From contig QMRC01000016.1 of the NCBI GenBank assembly GCA_003649205.1, forward strand, positions 1 to 36,109: DNA of 36,109 nucleotides, written 5' to 3'. This stretch comes from Thermoprotei archaeon (GTDB taxonomy: Archaea > Thermoproteota > Thermoprotei > Thermoproteales > B15-G16). The position numbers and the translations under genes are program-made. Below are positions 388-30,827 of the stretch, piece after piece. Numbering within the stretch: position 1 is the first letter of the stretch; each line of letters opens with the position of its first letter. Under the pieces are notes generated by a model that worked only from the letters and a program-made list of their open reading frames with translations, had not been told where the DNA came from and made no database searches.

Positions 388-2472
388 TTAGCTAAGACCT
401 CGTTTCTTAAGCTCCTCGATTAAGTACTCAACATCAAGACTTGATAGCTTGCCATATGCAACAAGTAGCTTGAGAATTGGTTTTGCAACAATACTACCGC
501 TCTTAGCCTTAATGCTGAAGAACTGCTTGTAATTCCTCATAATGAACTCAATGAGTTCATCTCTACTCATTGTAAGACAACGACGAACGAGATCTACCTT
601 AGACTCAGGAATACTAAACAACTTACACAACTTCTCAACATTGAGGATGCGATTAGTACTCAGAGAGGACTTACCTTCACCTAATTGAGGTAGAGAAGGT
701 AGAGGTGGTGTGATGTTGGAGGTGTGAGGTACATTCCTCTCCAGTACTGGAACTTCCCTCTCCTCAACAAGGGAAATCCTGTAGATATCGTACATACCAT
801 CAATTGCGTAAATAGCTTCACCAACACAAAGTCGAGCCAGTATAGCCTTAAGCTCATCTCTAATAGGATTTAGCTCATCATGAAAGCTCATCTTAGGTAG
901 AATATCGTAAACAACAGCTTCCCTATCATCATCACTATCAAGTCTAAATACAAGCTTTGTTGAATTAGCACGAACAACAGCATCAACTCTCGTATAGTGC
1001 TGAGAAGCAACTACAAAGAATAGATTGAAGTTCCTAGCAATTCTAAGAACTTGACCAAGAAAACTAGGAGCAACAGAGCGATACTCAAGTTCAGGAGCAA
1101 TTAGAGAAACCTCATCGATGATTATGTAGGTCTTTGTCCTGAAGAATTCATGATATTGAGGATAACGAATGAGGACAGATAGAAAAGCCATCATGAAAAC
1201 TGCCTTACTAAAATCGGATAACCTAGATAGGTCAAGAATGTACGTAGTACCAGGCTCAAAACTAACAACAGACTGCTTAGGTTCAAAGTAAGGTATTAGA
1301 AGTTCGAGTCTACGCTTAACAGCTTCACTAGCTTTCACAATATCATCGACATAGACCTGGAGGTTAAATAGCTTAGTAACATCCTCCTCCTCAAGAACCC
1401 TATACACTCCCCTTAATGTTGGATCCACCTTACGCTCAAGTAGAAGCTGATACACACGCCTAAAGACCTGCTGCTGAATCGCTGTCAATGTATCACGTTC
1501 AGGACATGTATACTGAATACCTGTATTTATTATCTCAACTGTTTGTGCAAAAGCCTCATATGGACTTAACAACCTTGTAAGCTCATACAGTGGATCAAAA
1601 CTAAAGTCATGGGGAACACGAACAATAGCTACTCTAGATAGGTCCATAGACTTAGCACGAAGCACCTTAGATACGATACTCCCAAGCACATCAAACACAA
1701 TAACTCTATACCCTAGCTCAGGAAGCTTGAGAGAGAGCAGAGTTAGGAAGTTCGTCTTACCAGTTCCAGTTGTACCAGAGACAAACATGTGTCGATCAAG
1801 AACAATAAAAGCAGGTTGCTGTGGATTGAGGTACCTACATCCAACCTCAAGTACGAGCTTAGATGAGGGAATGATGTGTAGAGTTCTTGCTAAGACCCTA
1901 GCTATGAACTTATCAACACGTTCACATGTTTCAGGAATAAATCCCTTCAACTTACGTAGAGAAAACTGCTTACCACCATCGTCGAATACGTATAGACCAA
2001 CTTTAACTGGATGAAGTTGCTCAACCTCTTCATCAAAATGTGTTACAGGAACAAGATCTCTATAAATGGAGAAAGGCCTCGTAACAAACTTCCTAAATCT
2101 CTTCCTGTACTTAACGAGCTCCTTAACAGAACAACGTTCAACAACAAAAACAAAGTGATTACCAGGTATATCAAGTGAACTAACATCAAAGGACTTAACA
2201 GGTCTAAACCTAGTATAGCTTAGTACTCGATCAACAGTACTGAGATCAACAACCTTAATCAATGAGTCATCAGTAGCTCTTCTAGCTAGTAGTACGTGCT
2301 TAATTGATGAATAAACAACATCACAGTACTTCTCACCAACAATAGCAACAATGAAGTTATGTCCATGGTCATGAACTAGGAGAAACTTCTCAATACCAAT
2401 CGTGTACATAATATCGTGTACAGACAAAGTACATGGGTACTTTACAACAGCAAATACAGCAACCCTACGCAC
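388..2472 (-). CDS. HerA/FtsK-superfamily ATPase (VirD4/TraG coupling-protein-like or CedB-like)
   Basis: RHMFVSGTTGTGKTN Walker A, VIVFD, YIIIDEV Walker B and ARNFNLFFVVASQ (R-finger/SQ motif) typical of HerA/VirB4/VirD4. Translationally coupled to the upstream ATPase. Confidence 0.8.
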   Translation of the reverse strand: MRRVAVFAVVKYPCTLSVHDIMYTIGIEKFLLVHDHGHNFIVAIVGEKYCDVVYSSIKHVLLARRATDDSLIKVVDLSTVDRVLSYTRFRPVKSFDVSSLDIPGNHFVFVVERCSVKELVKYRKRFRKFVTRPFSIYRDLVPVTHFDEEVEQLHPVKVGLYVFDDGGKQFSLRKLKGFIPETCERVDKFIARVLARTLHIIPSSKLVLEVGCRYLNPQQPAFIVLDRHMFVSGTTGTGKTNFLTLLSLKLPELGYRVIVFDVLGSIVSKVLRAKSMDLSRVAIVRVPHDFSFDPLYELTRLLSPYEAFAQTVEIINTGIQYTCPERDTLTAIQQQVFRRVYQLLLERKVDPTLRGVYRVLEEEDVTKLFNLQVYVDDIVKASEAVKRRLELLIPYFEPKQSVVSFEPGTTYILDLSRLSDFSKAVFMMAFLSVLIRYPQYHEFFRTKTYIIIDEVSLIAPELEYRSVAPSFLGQVLRIARNFNLFFVVASQHYTRVDAVVRANSTKLVFRLDSDDDREAVVYDILPKMSFHDELNPIRDELKAILARLCVGEAIYAIDGMYDIYRISLVEEREVPVLERNVPHTSNITPPLPSLPQLGEGKSSLSTNRILNVEKLCKLFSIPESKVDLVRRCLTMSRDELIEFIMRNYKQFFSIKAKSGSIVAKPILKLLVAYGKLSSLDVEYLIEELKKRGLS

Positions 2473-3551
2473 TAGGTAAGAACCTCCTCATGAACTTTAA
2501 CCCTAAATCTCACAGATCCAACACCTTGCCTAATGTATATGCCGTAACCACGGTCATGAGATAGTAGGAGCTCTTCATCCTCATCACTAAGCCTGAAGTA
2601 AGCCTTCAATGAATCTACATACTTACGAGGACCAGGGAGGAGAATAGCATTAGCAGTAAGTGAGTAAGTCTCTCTATCAAGTGAGTGAGGATCCTGTGAG
2701 ATTAACCAGAGACCAAAACCATGCTTCCTAACTGTTCGAAGAGCCCAAACTAGAAACTGAGAAGCACCTCTAGTAAGTCTATGAGCTTCATCAATGAAAA
2801 CAAACGTATGTGGTGTATCAGTTATGAACTTCATGTACTTAGCAAACAACTGAGCTAGAAATAGGTAGATGATGAACCTATGAACTTCTGTATCACCACC
2901 AACAGGTAGCTGAAGAAGAATATGCTTATTGAGAAGATCCAGGTCAATAATTTGCTTACCACGCATAAAGAACTCAAGCTCCTTCAACAAAACACGAAGC
3001 CCACCATATCTAGGACAATACGAGATAACATCATTAAATGACACAGCACCATTACGTTCAAAGACCTTAGAACAAACATCATAGAGAGTAAGAACATCTT
3101 CTCTACTCAAATTGAATAAGCTAGTACCGATCAAGAAGTTGTGTATAACCTCAAGCTCATCACTAGACCTAATGCAAAAGGGATCAAAAACAACCTTATC
3201 AAGCTCAATAATATCGAAGCCAAACCTACGACAGAACTCAATCCAGTGCCACTCACAATCAATAGCAATAATACGGAATCCAGATCTAATCAAATCAACA
3301 ACAATACTCTTAGCGAGAGTTGTCTTCCCCACACCTGTTGATCCTAAGATAACACCATGTGCATTAGGTGTAAAAGCAATACTAACATCCTTACCAAATA
3401 GATCTTTACCAATGATAACCGCTCCACTAACAGGAACAGAAACAACATAGGGAGAGAACATAGAGAAGTCATAACTAAGTGCTAAATGATAGTTAAACAA
3501 AAACTTGAGGAACTTTAGCAACAGCATACACGTCAACCCATAGCTCTGCAC
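2472..3551 (-). CDS. VirB4/HerA-like ATPase domain protein
   Basis: IIGKD..G..V....NAHGVILGSTGVGKT, IIAIDCE, VFIDEAH and RTVRKHGFGLWLISQ motifs. The true start may be downstream of 3551. Confidence 0.82.
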   Translation of the reverse strand: MQSYGLTCMLLLKFLKFLFNYHLALSYDFSMFSPYVVSVPVSGAVIIGKDLFGKDVSIAFTPNAHGVILGSTGVGKTTLAKSIVVDLIRSGFRIIAIDCEWHWIEFCRRFGFDIIELDKVVFDPFCIRSSDELEVIHNFLIGTSLFNLSREDVLTLYDVCSKVFERNGAVSFNDVISYCPRYGGLRVLLKELEFFMRGKQIIDLDLLNKHILLQLPVGGDTEVHRFIIYLFLAQLFAKYMKFITDTPHTFVFIDEAHRLTRGASQFLVWALRTVRKHGFGLWLISQDPHSLDRETYSLTANAILLPGPRKYVDSLKAYFRLSDEDEELLLSHDRGYGIYIRQGVGSVRFRVKVHEEVLT

Positions 3552-3557
3552 ATGAGA

Positions 3558-3920
3558 TTATGGCTTTGGCAGGAAGGGGAATATAGTTGTTAAGTAGCTG
3601 TAACCCTGCTTGAACACATACACTATAGTTGCTGCTACAGCTCTAATGAGAAACATCACATCCGCTCCAGCAAAATACGATGCAACAGCAAATGCTACAA
3701 CAAATGAAGCTGCTATCATGAGCGCTCTCCACAAGTACTCCATTATCCCGAATGGCGAAAATATTCTCCTTACAAGTCCAAGGAGTAGCAAGATACCCAC
3801 AGTAATCACTCCAAACCCAATACCAATAGCTCCTGCTTGCTTAAGCCACTCAGAAACCGGTGATAAAACCTGCTCCACCAGTGATTCCTGCATTAACGGC
3901 GTAATCACACAGATCACCAC
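3558..3920 (-). CDS. Small membrane protein, VirB2/CedA1/TedC-like conjugative pilin candidate
   Basis: 120 aa with 2-3 Gly/Ala-rich hydrophobic helices separated by a short RR loop, directly upstream of the VirB4-like ATPases. Confidence 0.5.
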   Translation of the reverse strand: MVICVITPLMQESLVEQVLSPVSEWLKQAGAIGIGFGVITVGILLLLGLVRRIFSPFGIMEYLWRALMIAASFVVAFAVASYFAGADVMFLIRAVAATIVYVFKQGYSYLTTIFPFLPKP

Positions 3921-4333: not shown

Positions 4334-5455
4334 TCAAGGCAATAGTAGTGGTAACACTTCAATAGGATTACATGGTCTATATGTAAATCCATGACTAAAG
4401 GCTGCTATGAGGCTATTCATGGTCTCTCGATCTTTGGTTAGGATTATAGATGATATGCGGAACATGACTTCGCGATTTCTTCTCATTCTATCGAGAGCTT
4501 CTGCAAGAGCAGAGGCTCTTCTAAACATACCGACTTTCCACAGAATGAATCCCCATTCCATCTTTCGTGTAACAGAAGCTTCAAGAACGGCAATTTCTTC
4601 CTGTGGAACTCGATCAATTCTAATGAGTACAATGAAGTTGCTGCTACTGGTAAAGATAGATCTAATTAACTTAGCATCATCGAGTAGCTCTCTTGCAGAA
4701 GGGAATCTAAACAGGTTCCTATTGAATACTAGGTTAGCACAGAACCAGTTAGTTCTGGATGCAGAACCAAAAACAAGGTGAGTGTAGGTACAGATCGCTA
4801 AAACGATACTGAGAGCTCCAAATAGTACGGCAAAGCCTGGGGTGGATAAGGAGGCTAAGTACATTAAAGCAATAGCTAGGGATATGGCAGTTAAGATCCT
4901 TAGAGTGCGAAGTCTTATTGGCTTAAATGCGTCACATAAGACTCTGTAGAGGTCAGTATCTTGAAGTGGAACGACATTAACACGAAGACGACAGTGTCTA
5001 AGTAGCCTAGAAATAGTTGAGAATAGTGAGGTAGGATCAGTATCAAAGTGACCGGAGATAAACCTAGTAATTGGAATTACGTAGCATTTCACGATATTAG
5101 AGCACTTCACAAAAGCGATGAGACATGACCTTGGTAAAGTGGTGGTAAACATCTTGAGGGTACTGAAGAACTCAATATCAGTAAAGTACTCAAGATCCTT
5201 AAGGGGAGTAACCTCAAAGACAATACCATGAAGATAGCAGTGTCTAGAGAGTCTATACATGAAGCTGAATCTCGAGAATACGAAGTTACTTGGAGAGAAG
5301 GGTATGGAGAAGAATAGCGTGTATATGGAGCGAAAGAGTTCAGGTAGTGAAAGCACGATAGCTATTAGAAAGAGGAATGCAGATAGTAATGGGAATGAAG
5401 CAAAAACAAATCCTAGGAATAGGGTGGTATAGGTAATAACCTTCCTTACGGACAT
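4334..5455 (-). CDS. Membrane protein, possible detached N-terminal half of VirB4
   Basis: N-terminal and central TM pairs. Segments FEVTPLKDLEYFTDIEFF and LDRMRRNREVMFRISSIIL resemble VirB4 N-terminal patterns. No Walker motifs. Confidence 0.4.
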   Translation of the reverse strand: MSVRKVITYTTLFLGFVFASFPLLSAFLFLIAIVLSLPELFRSIYTLFFSIPFSPSNFVFSRFSFMYRLSRHCYLHGIVFEVTPLKDLEYFTDIEFFSTLKMFTTTLPRSCLIAFVKCSNIVKCYVIPITRFISGHFDTDPTSLFSTISRLLRHCRLRVNVVPLQDTDLYRVLCDAFKPIRLRTLRILTAISLAIALMYLASLSTPGFAVLFGALSIVLAICTYTHLVFGSASRTNWFCANLVFNRNLFRFPSARELLDDAKLIRSIFTSSSNFIVLIRIDRVPQEEIAVLEASVTRKMEWGFILWKVGMFRRASALAEALDRMRRNREVMFRISSIILTKDRETMNSLIAAFSHGFTYRPCNPIEVLPLLLP

Positions 5456-6711
5456 TAAGTCACCTCATGGAGCTTGTTAATAGAGGTCTCAAGATCGTGT
5501 CTAAGAGCTACTAAGTTCTCCTCAATGTAGTCTAGCTCAGACTTAACCTCCTCACAATTACTAGCAAGCATCTTGAGATTCCTAACAATATCGAGAGCAC
5601 GATCAACCTTGGAACGAGCAGACTCAAGTAACATAAGCTTATCAATAGGTGAAGGTATGTCCTTAGCAGATTCAATAAATCTCTCAATCTCATCAACAAT
5701 ATTCTTCACAAATTCAAACTCGTGAGAGTACACGAGCTTGAAGAGGATACTCCTATCAATTTCAGCAATACGACCAGAGAGTAGCTCACGGAGAAAGTTC
5801 TCAAACTCATGAATAACATCTAGAAAGGTAGGGAGGTCACTAGGCTTAACACCAATAGTATTGAAGAAAGCTCTGTACTCAATTCTGAAGATCTTAGCAT
5901 CCTTTCTATTGAAATCAGGAATAACATTCCTGTATCGATAGAGGAGAGTATTGTAGTGGTATATAGAGGCTACAGCAAGTCTAATACCTTCATCAAGATC
6001 ATCTACAGACCTGACACTACATAGCTGAAAAATCGTCTCACAAACCCTCCTACCTAACTCCTGAATTTCATGCTCAAATCTCTGAGTATAGGAACGAAGA
6101 ACTGTTTCAAGAAGCTCAACTCTAGTCATCAAATCGACATTGCTACTAAGTACTTCTCCAGGAATACGAATACTTAGACTCCTCTTAATTTCACCAGCAA
6201 TTGTACGGAGATAGCGATTAAGTATCTGTACTGTATGGAGTTCATAGTTTGGTCTACAAAGTTTGATCCTACACTTCAGGTAATGTAGTGTAATCAACCT
6301 CTTAAGTAGTTCAGAGGGTATAATTGATGAGAGTATCTTTCCAAATACAGATATTGCTGGATCAGGTTCAAGTATGACATCACCACGAGAACCAATACCA
6401 ACAACACGAACAAGACCGCTCTGAAGTAAAGCAGCAATGGAAATCCATACCTCAGGGAAGAGACCAAGAACCTGTACGCTATGTGATAGAGAAAGTAGGT
6501 ACAGAGGACCAATGGCACAAGCAATAGGGTCACGAACCTTATCATGAATGAACTTTTCAACTTCATTAAGTGAAGTAAAGCTACTTACCTTAGGAGGAAT
6601 ATACCTGAAATCAAGCTCTAGAAAAACATCATTGTAAGATAGAACTCGTTGTACCCAGAGGATAGGGTACATAGCAGTACAAGCCAAAATGGACTCAACA
6701 TCGAGACTCAT
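5455..6711 (-). CDS. Hypothetical protein, alpha-helical/coiled-coil C-terminus
   Basis: 418-aa ORF with an upstream AGGTG RBS; its stop overlaps the next start codon. Confidence 0.75.
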   Translation of the reverse strand: MSLDVESILACTAMYPILWVQRVLSYNDVFLELDFRYIPPKVSSFTSLNEVEKFIHDKVRDPIACAIGPLYLLSLSHSVQVLGLFPEVWISIAALLQSGLVRVVGIGSRGDVILEPDPAISVFGKILSSIIPSELLKRLITLHYLKCRIKLCRPNYELHTVQILNRYLRTIAGEIKRSLSIRIPGEVLSSNVDLMTRVELLETVLRSYTQRFEHEIQELGRRVCETIFQLCSVRSVDDLDEGIRLAVASIYHYNTLLYRYRNVIPDFNRKDAKIFRIEYRAFFNTIGVKPSDLPTFLDVIHEFENFLRELLSGRIAEIDRSILFKLVYSHEFEFVKNIVDEIERFIESAKDIPSPIDKLMLLESARSKVDRALDIVRNLKMLASNCEEVKSELDYIEENLVALRHDLETSINKLHEVT

Positions 6712-6831: not shown

Positions 6832-7830
6832 ATGAGAATAATTTACGTGGATGAGTTACCGGAGATTAATGACGGTACCTACTTAACTTATTCAGCAGAG
6901 ACTCAACCATACCTAAAGGTACCTCTAGGTATGGTCTTCATTTTAGCAAAAGCACTAGCAGCTGACAACGTCATTCAGTGGAATGAGCGTTCAATTATTC
7001 AGCAGATTGCGGCAAGAGCAGCAAAATATGGGATAGTAGAGATCACACCTAATGTACTTGAACTATTTGCACCGGAAACCACCATATACGAGAGAATGAA
7101 GCTAATAAGAGCAATATTCACAGACTACATGAACGATAAGTCAAATAAACTAAAGCTAGTACCAGGACTGGAAAACACCTCACTACTACAACTCCTACTC
7201 GTTAATTCTGAGAACGTAGCAGTAGAAGGTGGTGATGCAATAATTGAAGAAGTACTACTACCAATAGTGGCGGGTAAGTTCAGGAACATCTACGTACAGG
7301 TAAAGTCTCAGAACGTATTCAAGTACTATCTAGATCCGGAATTAGCAACTATACATTCTCGAAGATTACGAGTACCTCCTAAGTACCTACACCTAAATGC
7401 GAAGCCCTATGTTACAGATTCAACAAAGCTAAATCGTATCTTCCAAGGGATTCAGGAACTAGATTATGTCACAGAGATTACACACCTAGTGTATACGAGG
7501 ATTATTCATGAAAATCCAGAGCTAGGAGGTGTGCTTGAGAAAGAACATGTGAAGAAAGCTATTGAAATGGTTGTCCTGACATATATTGAGGAGAGCGAGA
7601 TTAGAACAGCACCACTATCAAGCTTCCTTACGTCATTAATGCAAGTACTCAACATCAATGAAGAGTTGAGATATAGTGTTGCAATGTACATTTTAGAAGC
7701 ATTGGAGGATACAGCTCTAATTAAGCGAATAGAGCATGCAGCAAACATATTCGTGCTGCCTTCCAGAAAGCTGCTGACAATAGTGAGAAGAGAAGCAATA
7801 GCAAGAGCAATGAAGGAGGTGAAGAAATGA
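6832..7830 (+). CDS. Hypothetical protein heading the radA operon; possible C-terminal winged helix
   Basis: 332 aa, GAGGT RBS, overlaps the radA start (ATGA). The C-terminal ILEALEDTALIKRIEHAANIFVLP resembles a wHTH recognition helix plus wing. Confidence 0.7.
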   Translation: MRIIYVDELPEINDGTYLTYSAETQPYLKVPLGMVFILAKALAADNVIQWNERSIIQQIAARAAKYGIVEITPNVLELFAPETTIYERMKLIRAIFTDYMNDKSNKLKLVPGLENTSLLQLLLVNSENVAVEGGDAIIEEVLLPIVAGKFRNIYVQVKSQNVFKYYLDPELATIHSRRLRVPPKYLHLNAKPYVTDSTKLNRIFQGIQELDYVTEITHLVYTRIIHENPELGGVLEKEHVKKAIEMVVLTYIEESEIRTAPLSSFLTSLMQVLNINEELRYSVAMYILEALEDTALIKRIEHAANIFVLPSRKLLTIVRREAIARAMKEVKK

Positions 7831-8990
7831 CAAAGAGGAAGAAAGATATGGAGGAACCCTTCACAATCAAGGAGGTAAAGGAAGATGAAATAATCATAGA
7901 GATTAAAGGCTATGGGGAATTCAAAGTACGGTCGGATCTAGAGAGACTATCAGGAATTGGTCCAGTAACGAAGAAGAAATTAATCAATCTAGGGATCTAC
8001 ACTGTAAGGCAGTTAGCACTCTTCAACGATACAGAGTTACTAGAACTTATAACGAGAAGCAATGTATGCATCTCAGAGGAGACAATACTAAAGGCATTAG
8101 ATCAAGCAACATCACAGTATAGTAATATCGTTCTAACAGCAAAAGAACTCAAGAGATATAGAGAGGTAAAGCACCGTATCTACGCTCATGACAAAATTAT
8201 TGACGATGTACTGCAATTTGCAACGGAGAGAACATACTGTTTTACAGGTGAGTACGGTTCAGGAAAAACAGAGCTATGTGTTCACATGGCTGTCTCAAGT
8301 CAGTTCAAGCCAAAGGATGGTAGTCAGAAGCTAGAGTTCACGGATACTAAGGTAATTTACTTAGATACTGAAGGTGCTTTAGGACCGAAGCACCTAGATA
8401 AGATGCAAGCTATAGCTGCTAGATTACTTGAAGTAACAGAGCTACCACAAGGAACATCAAAAGAAGAGATCTTGGATAAGGTGCTAAGCAACATTCTAGT
8501 GATTAAGTGTAGACAAGCATATGCATTCAAACAGAGTCTAAAAAGGTACATACCACCAATAATTGAAGCTGCAAATGTGAAGCTCATTATTGTGGATAGT
8601 ATAATAAGACTCTTCAGAGCACAGTACCCAGGTCGTCGTGAGCTCAGTACTAGACAACAGGAGTTAGGGTACTGTATTGACCTATTGGGTAGGATAGCAG
8701 CCACATATCAGACATGTGTCTTAATGACAAATCAGATCTATACAAGACCAGTCACAGCACCCTACAGTACGGTATCAGAGGGATCACAGAAAGACATGAC
8801 AGGTGGATCACCTGTAAAGCATTATGTGACTGAGCATTGGGTTATTGAAAAACCACACTCAAAGAATGAGGAACTTGAAGGTTATAGATACCTGATAGCA
8901 CTAGATGTACCTGGAGAAAGGAAGGGACTTGCGGTAAAGTTCAGGATAACAGACTCAGGTATTGTAGGTATCAGGGTTGAGAGGAAATGA
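7827..8990 (+). CDS. radA: RadA/Rad51-family recombinase
   Basis: N-terminal HhH (LERLSGIGPVTKKKL..LGIYTVRQLA), Walker A GEYGSGKT, YLDTEG, LIIVDS..LFRAQYPGR.ELSTRQQ.L, TNQ and GG motifs, and a C-terminal FRITDSGI. GGAGGTG RBS. Confidence 0.9.
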   Translation: MTKRKKDMEEPFTIKEVKEDEIIIEIKGYGEFKVRSDLERLSGIGPVTKKKLINLGIYTVRQLALFNDTELLELITRSNVCISEETILKALDQATSQYSNIVLTAKELKRYREVKHRIYAHDKIIDDVLQFATERTYCFTGEYGSGKTELCVHMAVSSQFKPKDGSQKLEFTDTKVIYLDTEGALGPKHLDKMQAIAARLLEVTELPQGTSKEEILDKVLSNILVIKCRQAYAFKQSLKRYIPPIIEAANVKLIIVDSIIRLFRAQYPGRRELSTRQQELGYCIDLLGRIAATYQTCVLMTNQIYTRPVTAPYSTVSEGSQKDMTGGSPVKHYVTEHWVIEKPHSKNEELEGYRYLIALDVPGERKGLAVKFRITDSGIVGIRVERK

Positions 8991-10675: not shown

Positions 10676-10786
10676 CTCAATCTGAGATACATATGTCAGA
10701 TTTATAGGTGTATCTGTATACAGATAGATATTGCGAGATATCGCGTGATAGAAGGTAAAGGGTAAGAGGTATTGTAGTACCTCAAG

Positions 10787-21616: not shown

Positions 21617-23368
21617 ATGATGGTACTGCACATATTCTCAGAATTGCGTAGCAGAATTGATCATAAACTTCGAGAAGTGTATAGGTTTACGTTCATTGAT
21701 GAGAGGATTAGCTTTGAGGAGTTTAGATCTAGATTCTATAAACACCTTATGTATCTACTAGTTACAGTGGTAATTTTCCTTGCTATGAACCTCATACTAC
21801 CTCACCTACTTTACGATTTAAGATTATTGCTCCTCTCCAATGCTATATTACTTATCCCAATGACTTATCTCCTCTACCTAGTCACTAAACCATTCATTAA
21901 CTTAACTCTATTCTTCAGGAGAGTTGAGGCTGAAGCTCTATATGCTGCATTACATGCATCAATATACATGAGAGTTGTTACTGATCATGAAGCTAGAATG
22001 ATCTTGAATAAAGTGATTGAGCTTCTTGCTTCTAAAGATATTGTTCTTAGGTATGCCGCTAAATTCTTTAAACGAATTCTAAGAGATGGCGGAGTTGAAG
22101 CTCTTGATAAGTATATTGCTCTATGTAGACAGAAATCAATGCCCATTACTGAAGTTATACTGTCGACATTTATTGATGTTCTTCGGACCGGTCAGTACGT
22201 ACTCTATGCTGATAGACTTAGGGATAGAGCTTATGCTGAATTTAGAGCAAAGTTACAATCACTGATCCGTACTCATGAAATTATATCGATGTCTATCGTT
22301 TCAGTCGCTATCACAATTCCAGTTATCAGCTGTATTCTCTCTATCTTACTATTTAGCAAAATTCTCAATATTGCAGTATTCACTACATTGCTAATTCACG
22401 TGATTACAGTATTCATGCTTCTCATGTATCTTGACTCTACATGCCTTATCAAGATATTTGACTTTACACCATACCTACTACGCGCGGGTACTACTACAGC
22501 TATTATTGCTATCCCTCTTATTACTACTTCACTCGTGGTATCTAGATACCTCGACTACAGAGAGATCTGCATTACTATATACTTATGCTCGTGCTTGATA
22601 TCCCTCACCTTTGATTTTGTGTATAGCAGATACGATAGTCGTGCAATGTACATCTTCACGCAGTATTCATCATTTCTAAATAGGGTTGCTCAATTACTTG
22701 AAAGTAAATCATGTTCTCTTGTTTCTGCTATCCTTCAGATAGCTTCTGAAGATAGGTCATCTATCATGAGTAAGTTGCTACGTATTATTGCATCTAGACT
22801 CGTACTTAGTAAGGATTTGAATTACTTAATTTCCTTTATCATGAAGGTTAGAGGGTCATTTGCTGAATTCCTACGAACTGTAACCTCACTTCTCATAGAT
22901 GCTATGTACATCTCATTCTCACCTCACTATGTTCGTGATCTTGCTAGGATGTACGATGAGTATGTTGGAGCATACGAGCTGTATCTCAATTCAATGAAGT
23001 CTGCTAAGTATGTACTATTCATCGTTGCAGGCGTGATATCCTTTATCATGTACCTCGTTATTAAGTGCGTTCTTGCTGTTTTCGCCGAAATCACAATTAC
23101 TCCTTCAGCTAGTGAGTTAGGTGTTGTTCTACCCATATCATTACCAAGTAAGGCCGATATTGCTCATGTAACTATCCTCTCAACCACTATGATCAATATC
23201 ATTTTGTTCACTTCAGCTATGGTTGTTGCTAAGCTCGCTACTGGTCGAATCGGCATTTTTGGCAGGTATGCACTAATCTCCCTACTCATTGCATTCCTCA
23301 TATTTATCCTCATATACTACTTCATACCACCTCTTGGAGGTATCAGTGTATGGAGCTTAGGGAGTTGA
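21617..23368 (+). CDS. Type IV pilus membrane platform protein (TadC/FlaJ/GspF-like)
   Basis: 583 aa with two cytoplasmic helical domains each followed by TM clusters; divergent from the secretion ATPase. Confidence 0.72.
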   Translation: MMVLHIFSELRSRIDHKLREVYRFTFIDERISFEEFRSRFYKHLMYLLVTVVIFLAMNLILPHLLYDLRLLLLSNAILLIPMTYLLYLVTKPFINLTLFFRRVEAEALYAALHASIYMRVVTDHEARMILNKVIELLASKDIVLRYAAKFFKRILRDGGVEALDKYIALCRQKSMPITEVILSTFIDVLRTGQYVLYADRLRDRAYAEFRAKLQSLIRTHEIISMSIVSVAITIPVISCILSILLFSKILNIAVFTTLLIHVITVFMLLMYLDSTCLIKIFDFTPYLLRAGTTTAIIAIPLITTSLVVSRYLDYREICITIYLCSCLISLTFDFVYSRYDSRAMYIFTQYSSFLNRVAQLLESKSCSLVSAILQIASEDRSSIMSKLLRIIASRLVLSKDLNYLISFIMKVRGSFAEFLRTVTSLLIDAMYISFSPHYVRDLARMYDEYVGAYELYLNSMKSAKYVLFIVAGVISFIMYLVIKCVLAVFAEITITPSASELGVVLPISLPSKADIAHVTILSTTMINIILFTSAMVVAKLATGRIGIFGRYALISLLIAFLIFILIYYFIPPLGGISVWSLGS

Positions 23369-24076: not shown

Positions 24077-24982
24077 ATGGATATTCTCAATTTGCTCACG
24101 ACGGAGATAAAGATTGGTGAGTTCACGGTGATGCCTGTTTTTGCTGCTTTGACATTAGCTGGTGCTGTTATTTATGCTCTTGTCTGTTATGCAGCTGGTA
24201 TCTACTATAGGTTTTTAAGCGGTATTGAGTACGTCATAAACACTGGCCTACATCTAGCTCTCCTATTTGTTATAGATCATACTGTTTCCTCTTGTGTTAA
24301 TTACTATATCGACTACATTCGACAGGAATTTGGTGTTAGTGCACCAATCTCGATAACTTCACTACGACCATTTGCATTTGCACGAGATCTAATGCTTGAT
24401 GCTGTGGCAAAAATTAATTCCCTCTTAAATTCATATGAATCGCAGATCACTCTCTCCAAGTACTCACTCATCTTCAGTTACCTTGCTGAGGGAGCACATA
24501 ATTCTGTGTCCTCTCTAGAACAGGTTATTTCTGCTGCTCGTGCTCCATTTCTTTCACTAGCTTCATTCTATGGCTTTCTCTACGATACTAAGGTAACTAC
24601 AGTAATGATCCTCATTGGTGCATCATTGCTACTTTCTCCAGCTCTATCACGTCTTGGTGGTTTCCTATGCTTCACCGCTATAGGATTTCACTTCGCAGCA
24701 CCTATCTCAGCTGCTCTCGCTTACTACTACTTCATGAAGTATAAGTTCCCTACATCTATAAACATCGCTCTTCTACCATTTACTAATGTGAATACAACTA
24801 TTCCACTTGCTCAGTACTCTCAACCTGTCAATCTATATGGTAATTTACTAAACTTTTTCACAAATGCTGCCTTTGCTGCATCCTCCGCTGAAGTAGCTGC
24901 TCTCTTCGTATTTTCACTATGTTCTGGTATTGCAGGTGCTATTGGTGCTGTTGTCGGTAATCCTATAGCTAGATTGAGGTAA
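24077..24982 (+). CDS. Polytopic membrane protein, CedA/TedA/VirB6-like
   Basis: About 5-6 TM helices. LLLSPALSRLGGFL motif and a C-terminal GIAGAIG helix parallel the next gene. Confidence 0.55.
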   Translation: MDILNLLTTEIKIGEFTVMPVFAALTLAGAVIYALVCYAAGIYYRFLSGIEYVINTGLHLALLFVIDHTVSSCVNYYIDYIRQEFGVSAPISITSLRPFAFARDLMLDAVAKINSLLNSYESQITLSKYSLIFSYLAEGAHNSVSSLEQVISAARAPFLSLASFYGFLYDTKVTTVMILIGASLLLSPALSRLGGFLCFTAIGFHFAAPISAALAYYYFMKYKFPTSINIALLPFTNVNTTIPLAQYSQPVNLYGNLLNFFTNAAFAASSAEVAALFVFSLCSGIAGAIGAVVGNPIARLR

Positions 24983-24987
24983 ATTTC

Positions 24988-27900
24988 GTGACTTCACCTG
25001 ACTTCCTTAAGTACTTAATTGAGTTAGCTGAATATGATCCAAAGTACCTCATCATTATCGTTTCCTCTGTTGTGTCATCAATGCTATTGATCTATGGTCT
25101 TACTGCATATGCAGTTCTCAGGAGATCATTACTACCGTACATATCCTCAATCGTCTTCTCCAGTGTATTTTGTTATCTCGCTCTTATCGTTGCTGATCAG
25201 AGCTATGTCGCGCATGTAGTAGCCTCTACTCTTCACATTCCTGAACACTACCTTGATTTAGAGAAGTGTATCTCCCTCATTAAGAAACACATAGCTTCTA
25301 TTCAAAGTATCATCTCTACTCTCGGCTATGTTCATACTTTTGCTGTTACTACTCTACTCATTATAGTTTGTCTTTTAGGATTCAAGGTTGGTCTTGCTGC
25401 TGTCCTCATGCTTTTACTATCTAAGTTCATGACTGGTGTATTTACAGCACTTACAGCTGTCCTATCCGTACTCATTAGCCTATCGAGGATCTATACTGGT
25501 TTAGTTGTTCTCCATGCTATTCTCGACTTCCTTCACTTCGTACTCCCATTTATGACATTAGCTGGTGCTGTCTTTCTTGCTTGTGCTCCACTTCGTAGAC
25601 TTGGTATTACCTTGATCGTGTTCTCTTATGTCTTTGCTTTTGGTTTTCCCTTCATTATCTCATATAGTCTTGAGAAGGGGGAATTTGGTATTGATGTTTC
25701 TCATCTCTACTATGAAACTATAGTTCTCGGTAGTGGTAACTTTACCGTTATTGATGCTTCTGGTTACCCCATTCCATACGCTCTCCTAGTTCTTCATGAT
25801 GTTAGTAATACATCAAGATTCTACGCCTTTCAGGTTCTCGATAATGGCTTTAAGTCTACTGTCTTACCGTGTGGTACCTATGATTTGGATGTTATTACTC
25901 TCTGGTGCTCACTAAGTAGTAATTGTTCGAGAGTTGTAATTGAGCCCAATCTTTCGTTCAAGCTCTGTAACCTATCTGTTCTTACTGCTAATGTTCTTGC
26001 TGCTAATGCCTCTGTACAATTCCTCGACTTTAGTAATGCTTCTAGGTTCTGTATTCAGGTTCCCTACATTGTTATTGCTCGTAGAGGTGGTGTTTCTGGT
26101 ATTGTCTTTTATAGCGATGTAAATGTTACTGCTAGAGGTGATAATGTTGTTTCCCTTGTTAAGGTCCTTCCTGTAAATTCATCATTTTCCTTCACCTGTA
26201 TAGCATCTAATGTCATAGTATCGTATCAATGCTCAAATCCAAATATGACCGTTACCTACTCAATCTCTCACGTTTCAAATCCTGCTCTCAATGTCATACC
26301 TGAGGCGTTCTTTAGGAATCTATACAGCAATTATTGTGTCTGGTACAACTTCGTCATCGCTCCTATTATTACTTGGATTGAAGAGACTGGTCCATTAGGT
26401 GGTTATGAAATTCCTTACTACGAGTTTCTCTGTAGGTTAAAGCCTGATCCATTCTTCTACTACGATCCCTCTCCTCATGTCCTTAGAGTTAGTATTGAGG
26501 TTGTTGCTGTTAATGAGACAAGACCCAATGATTATGCTATAGTCCAGATTGATGTCTATGGTGTTGACGTTACCTGGTCTAAGTGGAATTGGTTAGTCTA
26601 TACGCCATACATGGAGTACGGTAGGTATCTGGTTAAGGAGATGTCTAAGTTGTGGTTTCCACTTAGAGAGTATGCTGCATTGTGGTACAATGTATTTTCA
26701 TGGCTTATTCCACTTGTACTATCTGCCGATGTTTTGTCTGGGCTTTTCGGTGGTTACTCAATTAGCTTTAGATTGCTTGGTCTCATAACACCGCTATTCA
26801 GGGGATCGGCGGCTCGTGTATACGGTGTTGCTCTGTCTACGACTATGCATGTTGCTATGGTGTTAATGCGGAGAATGTACTTAATGGCTCATCAATACAT
26901 TGCCAGATATACCCCAGTTATGCTGCTTCGTAGACTTATTGCTCCTACTCCATTCATTAAGTTGAGGGAGTTGCCGGTATTCACTAGGTTTAGAGTATAT
27001 GTTGAGGCTGTTAGATCTGTTCTTGAGACTAGGATTCCTAGGAAATTCGCTTCTGTTATTGCGCATACAGCTACTGCTCTCGGCATATCTACATCGGCTA
27101 TCTTCAGAGCAATTATTCATCGTCATCCACTCACTCTTGGTCTTCAATTCATTGCATCACTCTATAAGCATTATCTTGCCACAAGACGTGGCTATTTTGC
27201 TGTGGATGAGTCAAAGTTCCTACGCTTTGTTGAGATTGCTTCTAGACTTGCTGCAGCTCAGAGATCACTATTCCATACATTACTAGTTCTTGCTTCGATT
27301 AGTGAGAAAATTGCAATGTTTGTAAGCAGAGTTAGTACTTCAAAAGCTGCTGCAGTTAGAGTTCTTGGTGAACTTCTATCGATACGTCATGTATCTGAAC
27401 TTGTTGAGAAGTACTTACCTCCTCCTGATGTAAGAACTTTCCGAGATATTGTTTCTGCCGTCAGGTCGCTTCATCATGAAGTTGAGAGGTATGTTAGGGG
27501 TCTAGATGAGATTCGTAGGCCTATTACCAGTGAAGACTTGAAGTACATTATAGCTGGTTTCTATACGAGATTTCTCGGGTATGGTTTCTACGGTATTGAA
27601 CTTGCTAAGAAATTACAATCATTGGTTACTACAGTTTACAAATTATCTCGTATTGCACCCCCTACCTCGCTTCAAGATTTGAGTGTACTTAGGTCAAAGA
27701 TTGAGTTGCTTCGTAGAGGGGATTTCTCGCAGTTGATCTCTCTTGCACATTACTTTAGGAATTTAAAGGTTGTTGTTCCTCCAATGCCTTCACTTCCAGC
27801 TATTAAAGTAGTTCATGGCTGGATCCACCTATTAGTACCAGGTACCCCTAGGTTAGCTACCATTAGTGAGGTTGCTGAGTATGTATCTGAACTTCACACA

Positions 27901-28893
27901 ACACTTCAATATGTGAGGTCACTATCTGAGCAGTATATTGTTGATCCAGAGCGGGTTAAGTATGTATTCGACACTATTCAGCGACATGTCGCAGATGTAG
28001 TACAGGGTGTTTGTGATAAGCTTGTTACCAGGTTGAGACTACTCGATATTCATGACTTAGCACGTGAGGTAGTACTAGCTTTAGCAAGGATATCCCCTGA
28101 CAGTGTGCATCAAGTACATGCACTCATTAGGGAATTTGAGGATAGAGTTAGGTCAGCTATCAGCACTGCTATCATTATGCGTGATTATAGCGTTTTAGAG
28201 GAATTCGCTAATGTAGTTCCTGAACTTGGTCTTCCTACTAAGATCACTGTTACTGTGTCCCCTGAAAGAGCTCACGAGTATGGTCTTGATATTAAGCAAT
28301 CAATTACCCTAGAACTTAACCTACGTGATTTACCGAGATTTCTTGCTGAATTAGATTCTCTATGCTTTACTTGCTCAAGTGAACGAGCCAGAGCTTTTGC
28401 AGCTGCTATTGCGGATCTCTTTGCTAGTTCAATTGCCGAAGCAATTAATGAACAGATACTGAGTAAGCTCGAACTTGAAACCTGGTTCTTGATAAACGTA
28501 CTTACTCTTCGTGAAGGTAAGTTCATTGATGTGAGTACGCTATCAGCTAATGACATTGCTACACTCATGAAGTATGTTCCTGAGTACGATTACCTCGTTG
28601 TTGATGTACTTAAGAGAGCTGATGAGAGGGGAAAGCTTAGAGAAGCCTTACTTGAAGCTCTACTCCTGAATCTTGGTGTACCACCTAGTGAAGTGTATGA
28701 GCTTAAGCACATGAACACGAATGAGCTTAGTAAGTACGTACTTGAGAAGTATGTGGTTGATGAGAGGTTACGGGATGTGGTCGATAAGCACCTTAAGGCA
28801 CTTGATAAAGTACATGTGAGGACTTGTGAAGAACTCTACATGTTATTGCATGAGTACCCATTGTATATCTATACATATCGTGAAATTAGCTAA
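24988..28893 (+). CDS. Large membrane protein (1301 aa): CedA/VirB6-like TM core, extracellular beta domain, long cytoplasmic helical tail
   Basis: TM-rich first ~230 aa (FLACAPLRRLGITL), a sequon-rich beta region (FTVIDASGYPIPYA), a TM ending LSGLFGG, then about 700 aa helical. Confidence 0.65.
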   Translation: MTSPDFLKYLIELAEYDPKYLIIIVSSVVSSMLLIYGLTAYAVLRRSLLPYISSIVFSSVFCYLALIVADQSYVAHVVASTLHIPEHYLDLEKCISLIKKHIASIQSIISTLGYVHTFAVTTLLIIVCLLGFKVGLAAVLMLLLSKFMTGVFTALTAVLSVLISLSRIYTGLVVLHAILDFLHFVLPFMTLAGAVFLACAPLRRLGITLIVFSYVFAFGFPFIISYSLEKGEFGIDVSHLYYETIVLGSGNFTVIDASGYPIPYALLVLHDVSNTSRFYAFQVLDNGFKSTVLPCGTYDLDVITLWCSLSSNCSRVVIEPNLSFKLCNLSVLTANVLAANASVQFLDFSNASRFCIQVPYIVIARRGGVSGIVFYSDVNVTARGDNVVSLVKVLPVNSSFSFTCIASNVIVSYQCSNPNMTVTYSISHVSNPALNVIPEAFFRNLYSNYCVWYNFVIAPIITWIEETGPLGGYEIPYYEFLCRLKPDPFFYYDPSPHVLRVSIEVVAVNETRPNDYAIVQIDVYGVDVTWSKWNWLVYTPYMEYGRYLVKEMSKLWFPLREYAALWYNVFSWLIPLVLSADVLSGLFGGYSISFRLLGLITPLFRGSAARVYGVALSTTMHVAMVLMRRMYLMAHQYIARYTPVMLLRRLIAPTPFIKLRELPVFTRFRVYVEAVRSVLETRIPRKFASVIAHTATALGISTSAIFRAIIHRHPLTLGLQFIASLYKHYLATRRGYFAVDESKFLRFVEIASRLAAAQRSLFHTLLVLASISEKIAMFVSRVSTSKAAAVRVLGELLSIRHVSELVEKYLPPPDVRTFRDIVSAVRSLHHEVERYVRGLDEIRRPITSEDLKYIIAGFYTRFLGYGFYGIELAKKLQSLVTTVYKLSRIAPPTSLQDLSVLRSKIELLRRGDFSQLISLAHYFRNLKVVVPPMPSLPAIKVVHGWIHLLVPGTPRLATISEVAEYVSELHTTLQYVRSLSEQYIVDPERVKYVFDTIQRHVADVVQGVCDKLVTRLRLLDIHDLAREVVLALARISPDSVHQVHALIREFEDRVRSAISTAIIMRDYSVLEEFANVVPELGLPTKITVTVSPERAHEYGLDIKQSITLELNLRDLPRFLAELDSLCFTCSSERARAFAAAIADLFASSIAEAINEQILSKLELETWFLINVLTLREGKFIDVSTLSANDIATLMKYVPEYDYLVVDVLKRADERGKLREALLEALLLNLGVPPSEVYELKHMNTNELSKYVLEKYVVDERLRDVVDKHLKALDKVHVRTCEELYMLLHEYPLYIYTYREIS

Positions 28894-29300: not shown

Positions 29301-30041
29301 ATGGTAGTTGTTTCATTCTTTTCAGGATCAAAAGGTGGTGTAGGGAAGTCAACTCTATCAGCTCTCGTATCCTTAATCACTAGTTTGAAGTACAGGACAC
29401 TAGTACTCGATATCAGTGGTAGAGGTGCATCAGCACTATTGCTTCCTCACAAGCTAGATTCAGCTCAGTGCATAGATGATATCTTTAGAGGTATCTACAC
29501 AAAGTTGAAGATTTACAACATCTCTCGTGATGTCAAAATTAGAACTGGTGGTCTATTTAGGAGAGCTGTAGACGTTATGAAGGTAAGTGTAGACGTTATT
29601 CCATCAAGAGAACCTATTCCCCCTGATCCACATGCACTTAGTCTACTTGTGAATGTAGTTAAGTATGAGCTTGCTAGACGTTACGATGTTGTTATTCTCG
29701 ATATGCCAACTCTACCGCTATCGAGTTTTAGTAAGGTTGAAGCTAACTTCATGAACTTACTTCTTGCATCAGATAGAGTGTTTATCGTTGCTGAGTATGG
29801 TAAACACGATGTATTCGATCAATTTACGGACATACCAGTACTAACATTTAGGGTCCTGAATAAGGTTATTTCACAACAAGATATCAAAACAGTTAAAGCT
29901 GATGTTTTGGTTCCCTTTATTGCTCCACTTTGTCAAAGTATTGAGTTCTTCATTGATGTTGCATTACGATCAATTGATGTATTTCCTCAACTTCGTGATG
30001 CAGTTATCAAACTTGTTAAACTCATCTTCTACCCCTCCTAA
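29301..30041 (+). CDS. MinD/ParA-family ATPase (partition or TadZ/CpaE-like)
   Basis: Deviant Walker A SGSKGGVGKST, LVLD, YDVVILDMP, SDRVFIV and VLNK motifs; AGGTGA RBS. Confidence 0.85.
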   Translation: MVVVSFFSGSKGGVGKSTLSALVSLITSLKYRTLVLDISGRGASALLLPHKLDSAQCIDDIFRGIYTKLKIYNISRDVKIRTGGLFRRAVDVMKVSVDVIPSREPIPPDPHALSLLVNVVKYELARRYDVVILDMPTLPLSSFSKVEANFMNLLLASDRVFIVAEYGKHDVFDQFTDIPVLTFRVLNKVISQQDIKTVKADVLVPFIAPLCQSIEFFIDVALRSIDVFPQLRDAVIKLVKLIFYPS

Positions 30042-30044
30042 CCC

Positions 30045-30827
30045 TTAACCTGAAGCAATCTCTACTCTCACAGCACTATTCTCGTAAACTAGCTTCAAAT
30101 GAACTTCATGCACTAATTCAAGAAGAACTTGCTCTGTCGTAATCTTTGTCTCAACTTCAACCACTCCATGAGGTTTCACTGTTGCTACATCTGTACCTTC
30201 ATAACTTACCGTTATAGTGTAGTCACCTCTATTCCATAACTTGAGCTTTGCTATACCCACGCTCTCATTCACCTTCTCAAGCTCTATGACTAGATCATAG
30301 TTCCAATCTACCTCTTGTCCAAGTTCTTCTGTCTCAACCTCTACTGCTATTCCTTGCTCCAGTACCGTCACGTACTTTCCAGGTTCGTACTTGACCACTG
30401 CTGAATTACATACTGCATGATCATAGTACTTCCAGGTACCTAACTCATGTATGTACATCACTACTCTCATTGGATCAAAGTACGTTACTGTCCTTTGCTG
30501 TGGTATTGATGTTGTAAGATTAACACCTGGATTTAGTACTGTATAGGTCTTTAGATAGCAACTACTTGGTAACTCTACTCCAGGATAGATTAGTACTCTC
30601 GTTTGCGTTAAGACTATTGTATACGTCTTCGGTATATGTAGTGTAATGTAGGTGTACGTCTTTGTCCTGTAAGTGATCTCTATTGCTTTGAGTAAGGTTC
30701 TCAATTCCTGCTGTAAACTCTGTACACCTACACTCTTCTCAAGTTCAAGAACTGGAATGAGTAATAGTGCTAGTGTAGCTACTACTGCTGTTAAGAGTAA
30801 TAGCATTTCAAGTACTTCCACTAACAC
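30045..30827 (-). CDS. Orphan pilin-like / secreted protein
   Basis: GGAGGTG RBS; MLVEVLEMLLLLTAVVATLALL hydrophobic N-terminus, an amphipathic helix, then a beta-rich domain (LWNRGDY..VKPHG). Confidence 0.6.
   Translation of the reverse strand: MLVEVLEMLLLLTAVVATLALLLIPVLELEKSVGVQSLQQELRTLLKAIEITYRTKTYTYITLHIPKTYTIVLTQTRVLIYPGVELPSSCYLKTYTVLNPGVNLTTSIPQQRTVTYFDPMRVVMYIHELGTWKYYDHAVCNSAVVKYEPGKYVTVLEQGIAVEVETEELGQEVDWNYDLVIELEKVNESVGIAKLKLWNRGDYTITVSYEGTDVATVKPHGVVEVETKITTEQVLLELVHEVHLKLVYENSAVRVEIASG

Follow-up and report, generated by a model that had tools for sequence, protein, structure and literature searches.

Of the DNA-exchange machines of archaea, only Ted and Ced have, to our knowledge, been linked to bacterial conjugation, and both are described as domesticated and chromosomal. 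Contig C16 of a Thermoprotei archaeon (QMRC01000016.1) raises the question of whether such a machine can also reside on accessory, foreign-looking DNA, and whether that DNA moves by itself. The window analysed here is this entire contig of 36,109 bp, one of the 31 contigs of a 2.07-Mb genome bin (G000, the host genome; 93.8% complete, 4.2% contamination), and is filled by about 35 genes (g01 to g35 below; Table 1). The host is probably a crenarchaeon of the Thermoproteales type, judging by its nurA-herA-mre11-rad50 block, by the ~700-residue CedB/CedD/VirB4-like genes that 39 of 62 same-order genomes have in ParA- and HerA-linked loci, and by the scores of these ATPases, all of which stay under the CedB and CedD cut-offs. 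An initial annotation had seen in it an undescribed class of mobile element, in which an adhesion pilus, a DNA channel related to the type IV secretion system (T4SS) and Ced, and a RadA protein are combined. We read C16 as an accessory, laterally acquired island of ~36 kb, integrated beside contig C9 or present at about one copy per chromosome, that carries a strongly diverged Ted-type transfer system, a complex type IV pilus module and a RadA paralog. We give this reading a probability of roughly 55%. Comparisons covered 62 genomes of the same order, a sister genome of the same genus (G001, 71% complete) and, for RadA, 401 genomes of the phylum.

The link to Ted is carried by g02 and g04, which are predicted to encode TedB, a VirB4-like protein, in two pieces that are colinear with the single-chain proteins of ~700 amino acids (aa) found in relatives. 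The g02 product matches Pfam P-loop_TraG over the cut-off (4.4e-8) and, in the PDB, VirB4 of Thermoanaerobacter (4ag5, 2e-5); its NCBIfam matches are to CedD, TraC, VirB4 and CedB, each under the cut-off. It also matches the C-terminal ~300 residues of open reading frames (ORFs) of ~650-755 aa in 39 of the 62 same-order genomes. From their family matches and the make-up of their loci, we infer that these relatives correspond to the published TedB. Sixteen of them were aligned (alignment A3) to give a profile for hmmsearch and hhalign; within NCBIfam they match CedD (16/16), a VirB4 family (14/16) and CedB (11/16), all under the cut-offs. The g02 product aligns to the C-terminal part of A3, both by hhalign (99.9%, E 4.9e-33, template columns 356-673) and by hmmsearch (E 2.3e-39, positions 338-654).

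The g04 product, by comparison, aligns to the N-terminal half of A3 (hhalign 69%, E 4.4e-5, query residues 73-335 to template 85-325; hmmsearch E 6.3e-9, positions 21-314), and no other ORF of 50 aa or more in the host genome matches that half significantly. Seven of its ten structure neighbours in the ESM Atlas are named as VirB4/TraC/TraG-type proteins, and two more have such Pfam matches in their cluster (TM 0.56-0.63). Membrane segments are predicted near residues 6-44 and 182-221, at positions that agree with those of the segments in the relatives' TedB. Structure neighbours, hhalign and hmmsearch thus agree in identifying g04, at first sight a plain membrane protein, as the N-terminal domain of TedB, so that TedB appears to be split in C16. 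The two halves are separated by g03 and by a 413-nt spacer without a notable ORF on that strand. A profile search found no further TedB in the host or the sister genome. The g03 product, which was first taken for a VirB2-like pilin, does have three hydrophobic segments; it is an unverified candidate for a conduit pilin or a VirB3-like adaptor. A small-protein family of the relatives' loci was considered as a possible TedC and rejected, as no pilin was matched in the PDB. A scan of a contig collection with the TedB alignment, for which the pattern was overly generic, returned two bacterial P-loop matches.

TedB-like genes are thus present in 39 of the 62 genomes of the order, closed chromosomes among them, and their surroundings resemble C16. 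The relatives were sampled as 16 TedB loci, each spanning only ~9 kb to either side of the gene. A ParA-like gene homologous to g28 is found in nine of these loci, and a HerA-like gene with a match to the A3 family in six. A FlaI-like ATPase, a multi-pass membrane protein and pilin-like genes stand near TedB in one of the 16 (L037; G004:C1:127000-146999, a closed genome), where the order is pilin-like gene, five-segment membrane protein, FlaI-like, ParA-like, small proteins, TedB, a 1444-aa membrane protein and HerA-like. This layout is the plan of C16. As the same kinds of gene occur together in relatives' loci, the C16 cluster is no chance grouping. Several relatives (G004, G008, G010 and G014) have two TedB-like genes. 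At the level of individual families, hhalign comparison of 19 window proteins with ten families from the relatives' loci gave no pair at a probability of 30% or higher. The ParA/MinD-like product of g28 matches Pfam AAA_31 (3.5e-7), the ParA-like proteins of nine loci by phmmer (6.3e-7 to 7.2e-4) and their family profile f1 (E 1.2e-11), and is a homolog of the ParA-like gene in the TedB loci.

The published Ted loci of Thermoproteales are reported to combine TedA, TedB and TedC with ParA/MinD and HerA genes, and in two genera with Rad50 (PMC9905601; Beltran et al. 2023). The presence of ParA, HerA and Rad50 has been read there as a coupling of import to recombination. C16 is similar in that a VirB4-like ATPase homologous to the ~700-aa relatives, a ParA/MinD-like gene, a HerA-like gene and a recombination gene share one locus. 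The initial annotation had taken Sulfolobales as its frame of reference; the closer frame is that of same-order relatives, whose TedB-like genes lie in ParA- and HerA-linked loci as in the published Ted loci (PMC9905601). C16 differs from these in that TedB is divided between two genes, which the spacer and a gene for a small membrane protein separate; in that recombination is represented by a full RadA paralog, where Ted has Rad50; in having no sequence-detectable counterparts of TedA and TedC; and in being a compositional outlier bounded by inverted repeats.

Such a distribution also fits another explanation, in which C16 is an ordinary, vertically inherited and immobile chromosomal Ted-plus-pilus locus, 'domesticated' like the others and fast-evolving and AT-rich as surface-protein loci often are. 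The breadth of TedB in the order, the gene composition common to relatives' loci and the status of g02/g04 as the sole TedB of the genome all speak for it, as does the fact that g02 is about as distant from its relatives as their families are from each other. We consider this explanation somewhat unlikely, for reasons of composition, distribution, boundaries and RadA content that are given below.

The HerA-like component is g01. Its product matches Pfam DUF87 (1.3e-6) and TrwB_AAD_bind (4.2e-6) as well as NCBIfam CedD (1.7e-8). An AlphaFold model built with 25 distant relatives has a confident core (residues 184-547), for which the best Foldseek match in the PDB is HerA (4d2i, 2.1e-17), with VirB4 also close (4ag5, TMt 0.69). 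Among 1.84 billion representative proteins, 26 matched at E<=1e-3, and all 26 carry DUF87. A word-indexed protein search returned the query as the sole match, and a plasmid collection gave no match. The g01 product is weakly similar to the HerA-like genes adjoining the relatives' TedB, and is taken as their counterpart. The initial reading of g01 and g02 as HerA/VirB4-clade P-loop ATPases is therefore borne out by Pfam, PDB and NCBIfam.

The pilus module is anchored by g22, whose product matches FlaI (4ii7, 6.5e-13) over 355 residues (44-398) and a GspE-type ATPase (2oap, 1.2e-11) in the PDB, with the Walker A motif visible in the alignment. The NCBIfam matches, FlaI (1.1e-11) and VirB11 (6.9e-9), are both far under the curated cut-offs, and Pfam yields zinc-ribbon matches only, because g22 is strongly diverged. 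The neighbouring g23 is a candidate TadC/FlaJ-like platform, as judged from its topology and position. The seven helix-bearing proteins of g11-g18 are candidate major and minor pilins. By eye, a class III signal motif is present in two of the roughly ten pilin-like proteins (g11 and g17); g11 also has a match to Pilin_N under the cut-off (E 0.0017), and g11 and g13 are weakly similar (E 0.006). A g21-g33 similarity suspected by eye was rejected, since BLASTP gave none at E<0.05. Of the Tad-like pilus with an adhesin that had been proposed initially, the FlaI-type ATPase holds, the pilin-like genes are present as candidates, the TadC assignment comes from topology and position, and Pfam recognises no domain, adhesin or other, in the large surface proteins g19 and g20.

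These two proteins may be tip adhesins, and they have modules in common with chromosomal genes on C2 and C23. Residues 752-867 of g19 are 49% identical to C2:139-2340, and residues 8-166 of g20 are 52% identical to an ORF at the end of C23 (76% over 83 aa; the DNA is 81% identical over 253 nt). Together, C23:4693-5193 and C2:139-10598 form a chromosomal pilus-type locus that extends over two contig ends and holds homologs of both g20 and g19, in addition to pilin-like genes, a weakly FlaI-like 420-aa ATPase and a ParA-like gene. Its resemblance to C16 is limited to the adhesin modules, at 49-76% identity locally.

The RadA gene, g07, was confirmed as full-length by Pfam Rad51 (4.4e-25), PDB RadA (2bke, 2.7e-23), NCBIfam RadA (2.3e-45) and the presence of Walker A and B motifs. 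Its score of 155 bits against the NCBIfam equivalog cut-off of 259 marks it as a diverged paralog. The host genome contains three full-length RadA-like genes, on C7, C2 and C16. Identity to the RadA of relatives is 52-54% for the C7 protein and 43-45% for the C2 protein; g07 is 34-36% identical to both the C7 RadA and the relatives' RadA, and 30% identical to the C2 paralog. Among the 401 genomes of the phylum, its closest matches are RadA proteins of its own order at 38-40%, as calculated by the search tool, with nothing closer. The C7 radA lies ~2.5 kb downstream of herA-mre11-rad50, in a region where C7:44434-55556 was identified by N-terminal sequences as the host nurA-herA-mre11-rad50 block, with radA and a SWIM-type gene within ~2.5 kb after it. 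C7:45-74 kb had been considered as a second copy of the element and was rejected, as it is this host herA-mre11-rad50-nurA region with the host radA.

A SWIM protein also accompanies RadA in C16. The CxC...CxH motif of g10 and its 38% identity (E 4e-12) to the product of the gene right after the host radA, with the signature conserved, support the initial SWIM assignment. Weak similarity (E 9e-4) also connects g10 to a SWIM protein that Pfam recognises, but the Pfam SWIM model has no match in g10. The radA-SWIM pairing of C7 and C16 was not seen beside RadA in five relatives' loci. We read g07/g10 and the host radA/SWIM genes as a probable old paralog pair of the lineage.

The membrane conduit is the least certain component. 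For g25, a feature search of the ESM Atlas placed a cluster of 293-aa 'CedA1 domain-containing' proteins at the top (0.91, 202 of 256 features), 23% of whose members carry the Pfam CedA1 family. The CedA/TedA (VirB6-like) reading of g25 is thus a lead only, provided by a language model. The architecture of g26 resembles that of membrane proteins of 913-1788 aa located within 2.2 kb of TedB in four of the 16 loci. The two CedA/VirB6-like proteins of the initial annotation therefore retain this lead and this architectural likeness, without sequence or fold support. More broadly, the T4SS/Ced relation proposed for C16, when compared by Foldseek and profile methods, holds for the ATPases, the split TedB included, and lacks sequence or fold support for the membrane proteins.

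Table 1. Features of the C16 window (g, gene; strand given where it applies)
Feature	Position	Strand	Description
Left terminal inverted repeat	1-305		Two copies of CCTCAT..TTACGCTCAG box and hairpin (CACCCC..GAGG / CCTC..GGGG); contig begins inside the repeat
g01	388-2472	-	HerA-clade hexameric-type ATPase, 694 aa, CedD/HerA-like; N-terminal 200 aa of unknown fold
g02	2472-3551	-	Predicted C-terminal ATPase domain of split TedB (VirB4-like)
g03	3558-3920	-	120 aa, three hydrophobic segments (hydropathy); between the TedB halves
g04	4334-5455	-	Predicted membrane-anchored N-terminal domain of split TedB (VirB4-like)
g05	5455-6711	-	Soluble protein, no family at E<=0.01
g06	6832-7830	+	Soluble protein, divergent from g05, no family at E<=0.01
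g07	7827-8990	+	Full-length RadA paralog; helix-hairpin-helix N-terminus and RecA core
g10	9755-10213	-	SWIM-type zinc-finger protein, CxC...CxH motif
g11-g18	10232-14040	-	Eight small genes; seven with one N-terminal hydrophobic helix (hydropathy)
g12	within 10232-14040	-	Coiled-coil protein
g19, g20	14051-19209 (g19, 14051-17728)	-	1225 aa and 492 aa; large N-terminally anchored surface proteins
g22	19943-21571	-	FlaI/GspE-type secretion ATPase, C-terminal zinc ribbon
g23	21617-23368	+	Polytopic, nine predicted membrane segments, two cytoplasmic loops; divergent from g22
g25	24077-24982	+	301-aa multi-pass membrane protein; CedA/TedA (VirB6-like) candidate
g26	24988-28893	+	1301 aa; six N-terminal membrane segments, large helical remainder
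g28	29301-30041	+	ParA/MinD/FleN-type ATPase
g29	30045-30827	-	Pilin-like, N-terminal hydrophobic helix (hydropathy)
g35	35216-35700	-	Ribbon-helix-helix regulator, Pfam RHH_1 3.6e-9
Right terminal inverted repeat, inner part	35976-36109		Defined by alignment with the left end and with C9

The ends of C16 are imperfect inverted repeats of about 300-350 nt with conserved boxes and a hairpin. The left repeat can be aligned with the end of C9 at 66% mean column identity, with long identical blocks, and the left end of the contig falls exactly at the start of the repeat homology. The last 123 nt of C16 are the reverse complement of the C9 end, and the repeat runs ~220 nt further on C9. The length of this overlap is the same as in eight other contig-end pairs of the assembly; C16 and C9 are therefore adjacent in the assembly graph. 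Two more copies of the repeat core were found, one at C15:41.8 kb and one where C13 begins, the latter 93% identical to 35758-36098. In all copies a box, CCCCTCATCGC(C)TTACGCTCAGGG, precedes the hairpin (259-305 and 35976-36026 in the window, C13:73-120, and near 41829 on C15); the hairpin stem of the C15 copy is different in sequence yet still pairs. The C13 copy turns identical to C16 exactly at the start of the C9 overlap, which implies either that C16 and C13 both adjoin C9 in different cells, or that the repeat is common to a chromosome site and a separate replicon. C9 itself is chromosomal; Pfam recognises on it an Lrp-type regulator, a tyrosine recombinase, a SWIM protein, a ferredoxin-type protein and a redoxin, and we read its 813-aa ORF as a tRNA synthetase.

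Other repeats and genes are associated with these ends. Four of the eight TGGTACC sites of the window lie at 35638-35688, in the upstream region of g35, and together with the GGTGTACCA repeats (35900-35945) they form a cluster between g35 and the right terminal repeat; both might serve as operator, partition or origin sites. Proteins of ~350-400 aa that carry two LAGLIDADG-like motifs, identified by eye, form a family encoded at C9:70071-71225, C15:42099-43289, C6:87926-88969, C2:247773-248807 and, in a metagenome, at L067:440-1648. On C9, C15 and L067 the gene starts beside a repeat-plus-hairpin copy and points away from it. These proteins were negative in Pfam at E<=0.001 and in the PDB at E<=10. 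A homing-type role of the family in moving or delimiting the island is conceivable.

Composition and distribution both set C16 apart. Its G+C fraction of 0.399 is below that of all 236 equal-size windows of the rest of the genome (0.411-0.45; z -4.7), and its tetranucleotide distance (z 2.75) is exceeded by seven of the 236, all in one region of C2. Neither half of C16 has a DNA match in the sister genome, whereas chromosomal stretches of C9 and C13 match it at 93-95%. These two properties, the ~300-nt inverted repeats at the bounds with their recurrence at two other places in the genome, and the third, long-branch RadA in place of the host RadA speak against vertical inheritance of the locus. 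In favor of vertical inheritance, the assembly graph joins the right end to chromosomal C9, the depth is near-chromosomal, no integrase or replication gene lies inside, and no spacer matches were found. The depth refers to words counted in the source run on assembled contig pieces, 20.9-22.1 on C16 pieces and 25.2 on the C13-type repeat copy; from this proximity, about one copy of C16 per chromosome is indicated. A conserved chromosomal locus, named by the initial annotation as an outcome that would refute it, was found for the type of system, but not for the C16 copy itself.

The accessory-island reading is further supported by recurrence. In two other vent metagenomes, from other studies, short contigs scattered over C16 have 0-4 differences each, so that the element recurs at >=99% identity (at least 99%) in three metagenomes. 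Given near-identical contigs in two independent vent metagenomes, the C16 sequence is not an assembly chimera. The same recurrence also speaks for a self-transmissible element, a non-domesticated Ted relative by which its own DNA would be exported and which would be either an integrative and conjugative element (ICE) or a plasmid, linear or circular. Such an element would account for the compositional and accessory character of C16, for its terminal inverted repeats with the left end exactly at the start of the repeat homology, and for the ParA-like and ribbon-helix-helix genes; a tyrosine recombinase is available on C9, 3.7-5 kb past the right end, and thaumarchaeal ICEs with secretion and pilus genes offer a precedent (PMC6563490). 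That recombinase, however, stands beyond chromosomal-looking redoxin and ferredoxin-type genes, and neither a replication nor an integration gene was recognised in the window, whose ends are without direct repeats or a tRNA. The phage, plasmid and viral-contig collections contain no close relative: the phage collection gave one match, 23% identical, to g22, and two viral-contig scans gave none. As genes of the g28 kind belong to the relatives' Ted and pilus loci, g28 need not be a partition gene, and the Ced system is reported to import DNA (PMC9905601). We regard a self-transmissible element of this kind as decidedly improbable.

A related reading, in which C16 is a still-mobile, non-domesticated Ted relative, a unit bounded by inverted repeats that recur beside LAGLIDADG-like genes and that brings its recipient a pilus, a conduit and a recombinase, is also unlikely in our estimate, though the self-mobility of C16 is plausible. 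For the initial claim of a mobile element, what remains is an accessory, compositionally foreign segment that was not found in the sister genome; the window itself has no recognised integrase or replication gene and no direct repeats, and its right end is linked to C9 in the assembly graph.

Linear crenarchaeal viruses commonly carry inverted repeats at their termini. The repeats at the C16 ends, together with PHROG 'terminase large subunit' matches of g01 (4.4e-8) and g02 (1.4e-9), could therefore indicate a virus or provirus with FtsK/HerA-type packaging ATPases, and the 4.2% contamination of the bin leaves room for a misbinned contig of another organism. The PHROG matches, however, are limited to the P-loop region common to the superfamily, 14 of the 20 scanned proteins have no PHROG match, and no capsid or other virion gene was recognised. 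C16 can be assigned to the host genome because of the C9 end overlap, the adhesin modules common with C2 and C23, and the repeat copies on C13 and C15, and the same ties argue against misbinning. We consider a viral or foreign-bin origin extremely improbable.

Several points weigh against the accessory-island reading or against parts of it. Family scans of the window recognised no integrase, replication protein, membrane-anchored coupling protein or relaxase. None of the 51 host CRISPR spacers matches C16, so that the spacer comparison, from which the initial annotation had expected evidence of a targeted mobile element, gave none. The absence of C16 from the sister genome is only suggestive because that genome is 71% complete, and it is broken at the corresponding region, where no empty site is visible. 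Sequence divergence is no argument for a mobile origin either, since that of g02 from its relatives (24-30% identity) is no larger than that between two other families of the order in A3 (18-20% to each other). For the split TedB, the Pfam model of the VirB4 N-terminal domain (PF03135) has no match in the host genome or in the 62 genomes of the order, and the connection of g04 to bacterial VirB4 is therefore made by one predicted-structure search and the literature; an AlphaFold model of g04 alone, predicted without an alignment, had a pLDDT of 44.5 and was not used for fold searches. The g03 product has no match in the PDB, which is expected to contain the published TedC and CedA1 pili, in Pfam or in the relatives' small-protein family (hhalign ~0.1%). 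For g25, the fold search gave nothing over TM 0.34, and no sequence relative was found in the PDB, in Pfam or in the word-indexed protein search, which returned the query alone. The g26 product has no sequence similarity to the giant membrane proteins of the relatives, and hhalign spot checks of the g26 N-terminus and of g25 against these proteins gave ~0.1%. No family was found for g23 even at E<=10, and no prepilin peptidase was recognised in a search that covered the window proteins. ARAGORN and Rfam found, respectively, no tRNA and no RNA family in C16.

Some observations concern the rest of the genome and the right part of the window. At C1:269.7-282.7 kb, a CRISPR repeat occurs 53 times, apparently in two arrays, with 51 spacers. 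Three of these match contigs of the same bin, at C8:82.3 kb (93%), C17:4.9 kb (96% over 50 nt) and C27:1.05 kb (100%), and these contigs are likely viruses or plasmids of the same host. C17 is 22.6 kb long. In C17 and C3 alike, the two ends are reverse complements of each other; on C3 the mirroring extends, gene for gene, over at least the outermost 24 kb. Either a fold-back in the assembly or a genuine large inverted duplication could account for this. Within the window, a 95-aa ORF at 32870-33157 with a sub-threshold match to VWA_2 (E 3.1e-5) is possibly a gene fragment.

The gene content of the C16 island is compatible with the following working scheme. The g22 ATPase, the family of which is established, and the putative platform g23 would assemble the pilin-like products of g11-g18 and g29 and display g19 and g20, and the resulting pilus, with these two surface proteins, would mediate contact between cells. 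The adhesin modules are common to genes of the chromosomal pilus locus, which fits a recognition of own kind. The g04 N-terminal domain and the g02 ATPase, both assigned by homology, may assemble into the conduit ATPase of a Ted-type system, whose VirB6/CedA-like pore could be formed by g25 and g26 (a lead only), perhaps with g03. The MinD/ParA-like g28, also assigned by homology, might position this machine. The HerA-clade g01, with its established fold, may process or translocate DNA, and the RadA-family protein g07, together with g10, would recombine the incoming single-stranded DNA.

Other known systems share parts of this scheme. The Ced and Ups systems of Sulfolobales are similar in that pilus contact, a T4SS-derived conduit and homologous recombination are combined (PMC9905601; PMC11868833), and in Ced the VirB4 N-terminal domain is reportedly distributed over two proteins, CedB and CedD. 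The division is different in C16, where the N-terminal domain is separated from the ATPase, while Ced has two full ATPases; all the parts are located in one 36-kb block, and the NCBIfam CedB and CedD scores are far under the cut-offs. Thaumarchaeal ICEs are described with VirB4, VirD4, VirB6 and VirB3 as well as TadC, FlaI, PilT, a prepilin peptidase and pilins (PMC6563490; Krupovic et al. 2019). They thus share with C16 the joining of VirB4-type secretion genes to TadC, FlaI and pilins, the TadC-type protein of C16 being a candidate only. They differ by their integrases, VirD4/TraG, TFIIB-ParB pairs and replication modules, none of which was recognised in C16, and by a median length of 64 kb; no full-length RadA of the g07 kind is reported on them. 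The pNOB8-type plasmids of Sulfolobus, by description, also place a pair of FtsK/HerA-superfamily ATPases beside membrane proteins (PMC6563490, PMC9905601).

The pilus genes of C16 may have a close counterpart in the clade 4G pilus loci of Thermoproteales. These are described as combining a diverged ATPase with a diverged TadC, numerous fast-evolving minor pilins, two large proteins that are secreted, additional membrane proteins and an ATPase of the FleN/MinD type (PMC4858521; Makarova, Koonin, Albers 2016). This gene list fits C16 by description. A VirB4-like partner is unmentioned in the searched text of PMC4858521, in which the strings 'VirB4' and 'conjugat' have 0 occurrences.

As Ted loci, L037 and thaumarchaeal ICEs hold similar sets of genes, the combination itself is not new, and the undescribed class of mobile element proposed initially is not upheld. 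The accompanying statement that pNOB8-type conjugative plasmids are not known to carry type IV pili does not extend to archaeal conjugative elements generally, since thaumarchaeal ICEs have both secretion and pilus genes (PMC6563490). What is new in C16 is the split TedB, the full RadA paralog with SWIM in place of Rad50, and the island setting, although loci of this kind may already appear in the tables of PMC9905601, PMC4858521 and PMC6563490.

If C16 is an accessory, foreign-looking copy, the exchange system itself would be traded between genomes, which bears on how such systems are domesticated. With its membrane-anchored N-terminal domain and its ATPase encoded separately, the VirB4-like protein would offer biochemistry a natural two-piece version, full-length proteins having been reported as hard to express (PMC11868833). 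Pilus genes stand beside TedB both in C16 and in a relative's locus, a hint that clade 4G pilus loci and Ted loci may be one machine. The third, long-branch RadA beside this machine could serve as a test of a dedicated recombinase for imported DNA. If C16 were a still-mobile Ted relative, it would show the state from which the chromosomal DNA-exchange systems of archaea were captured.

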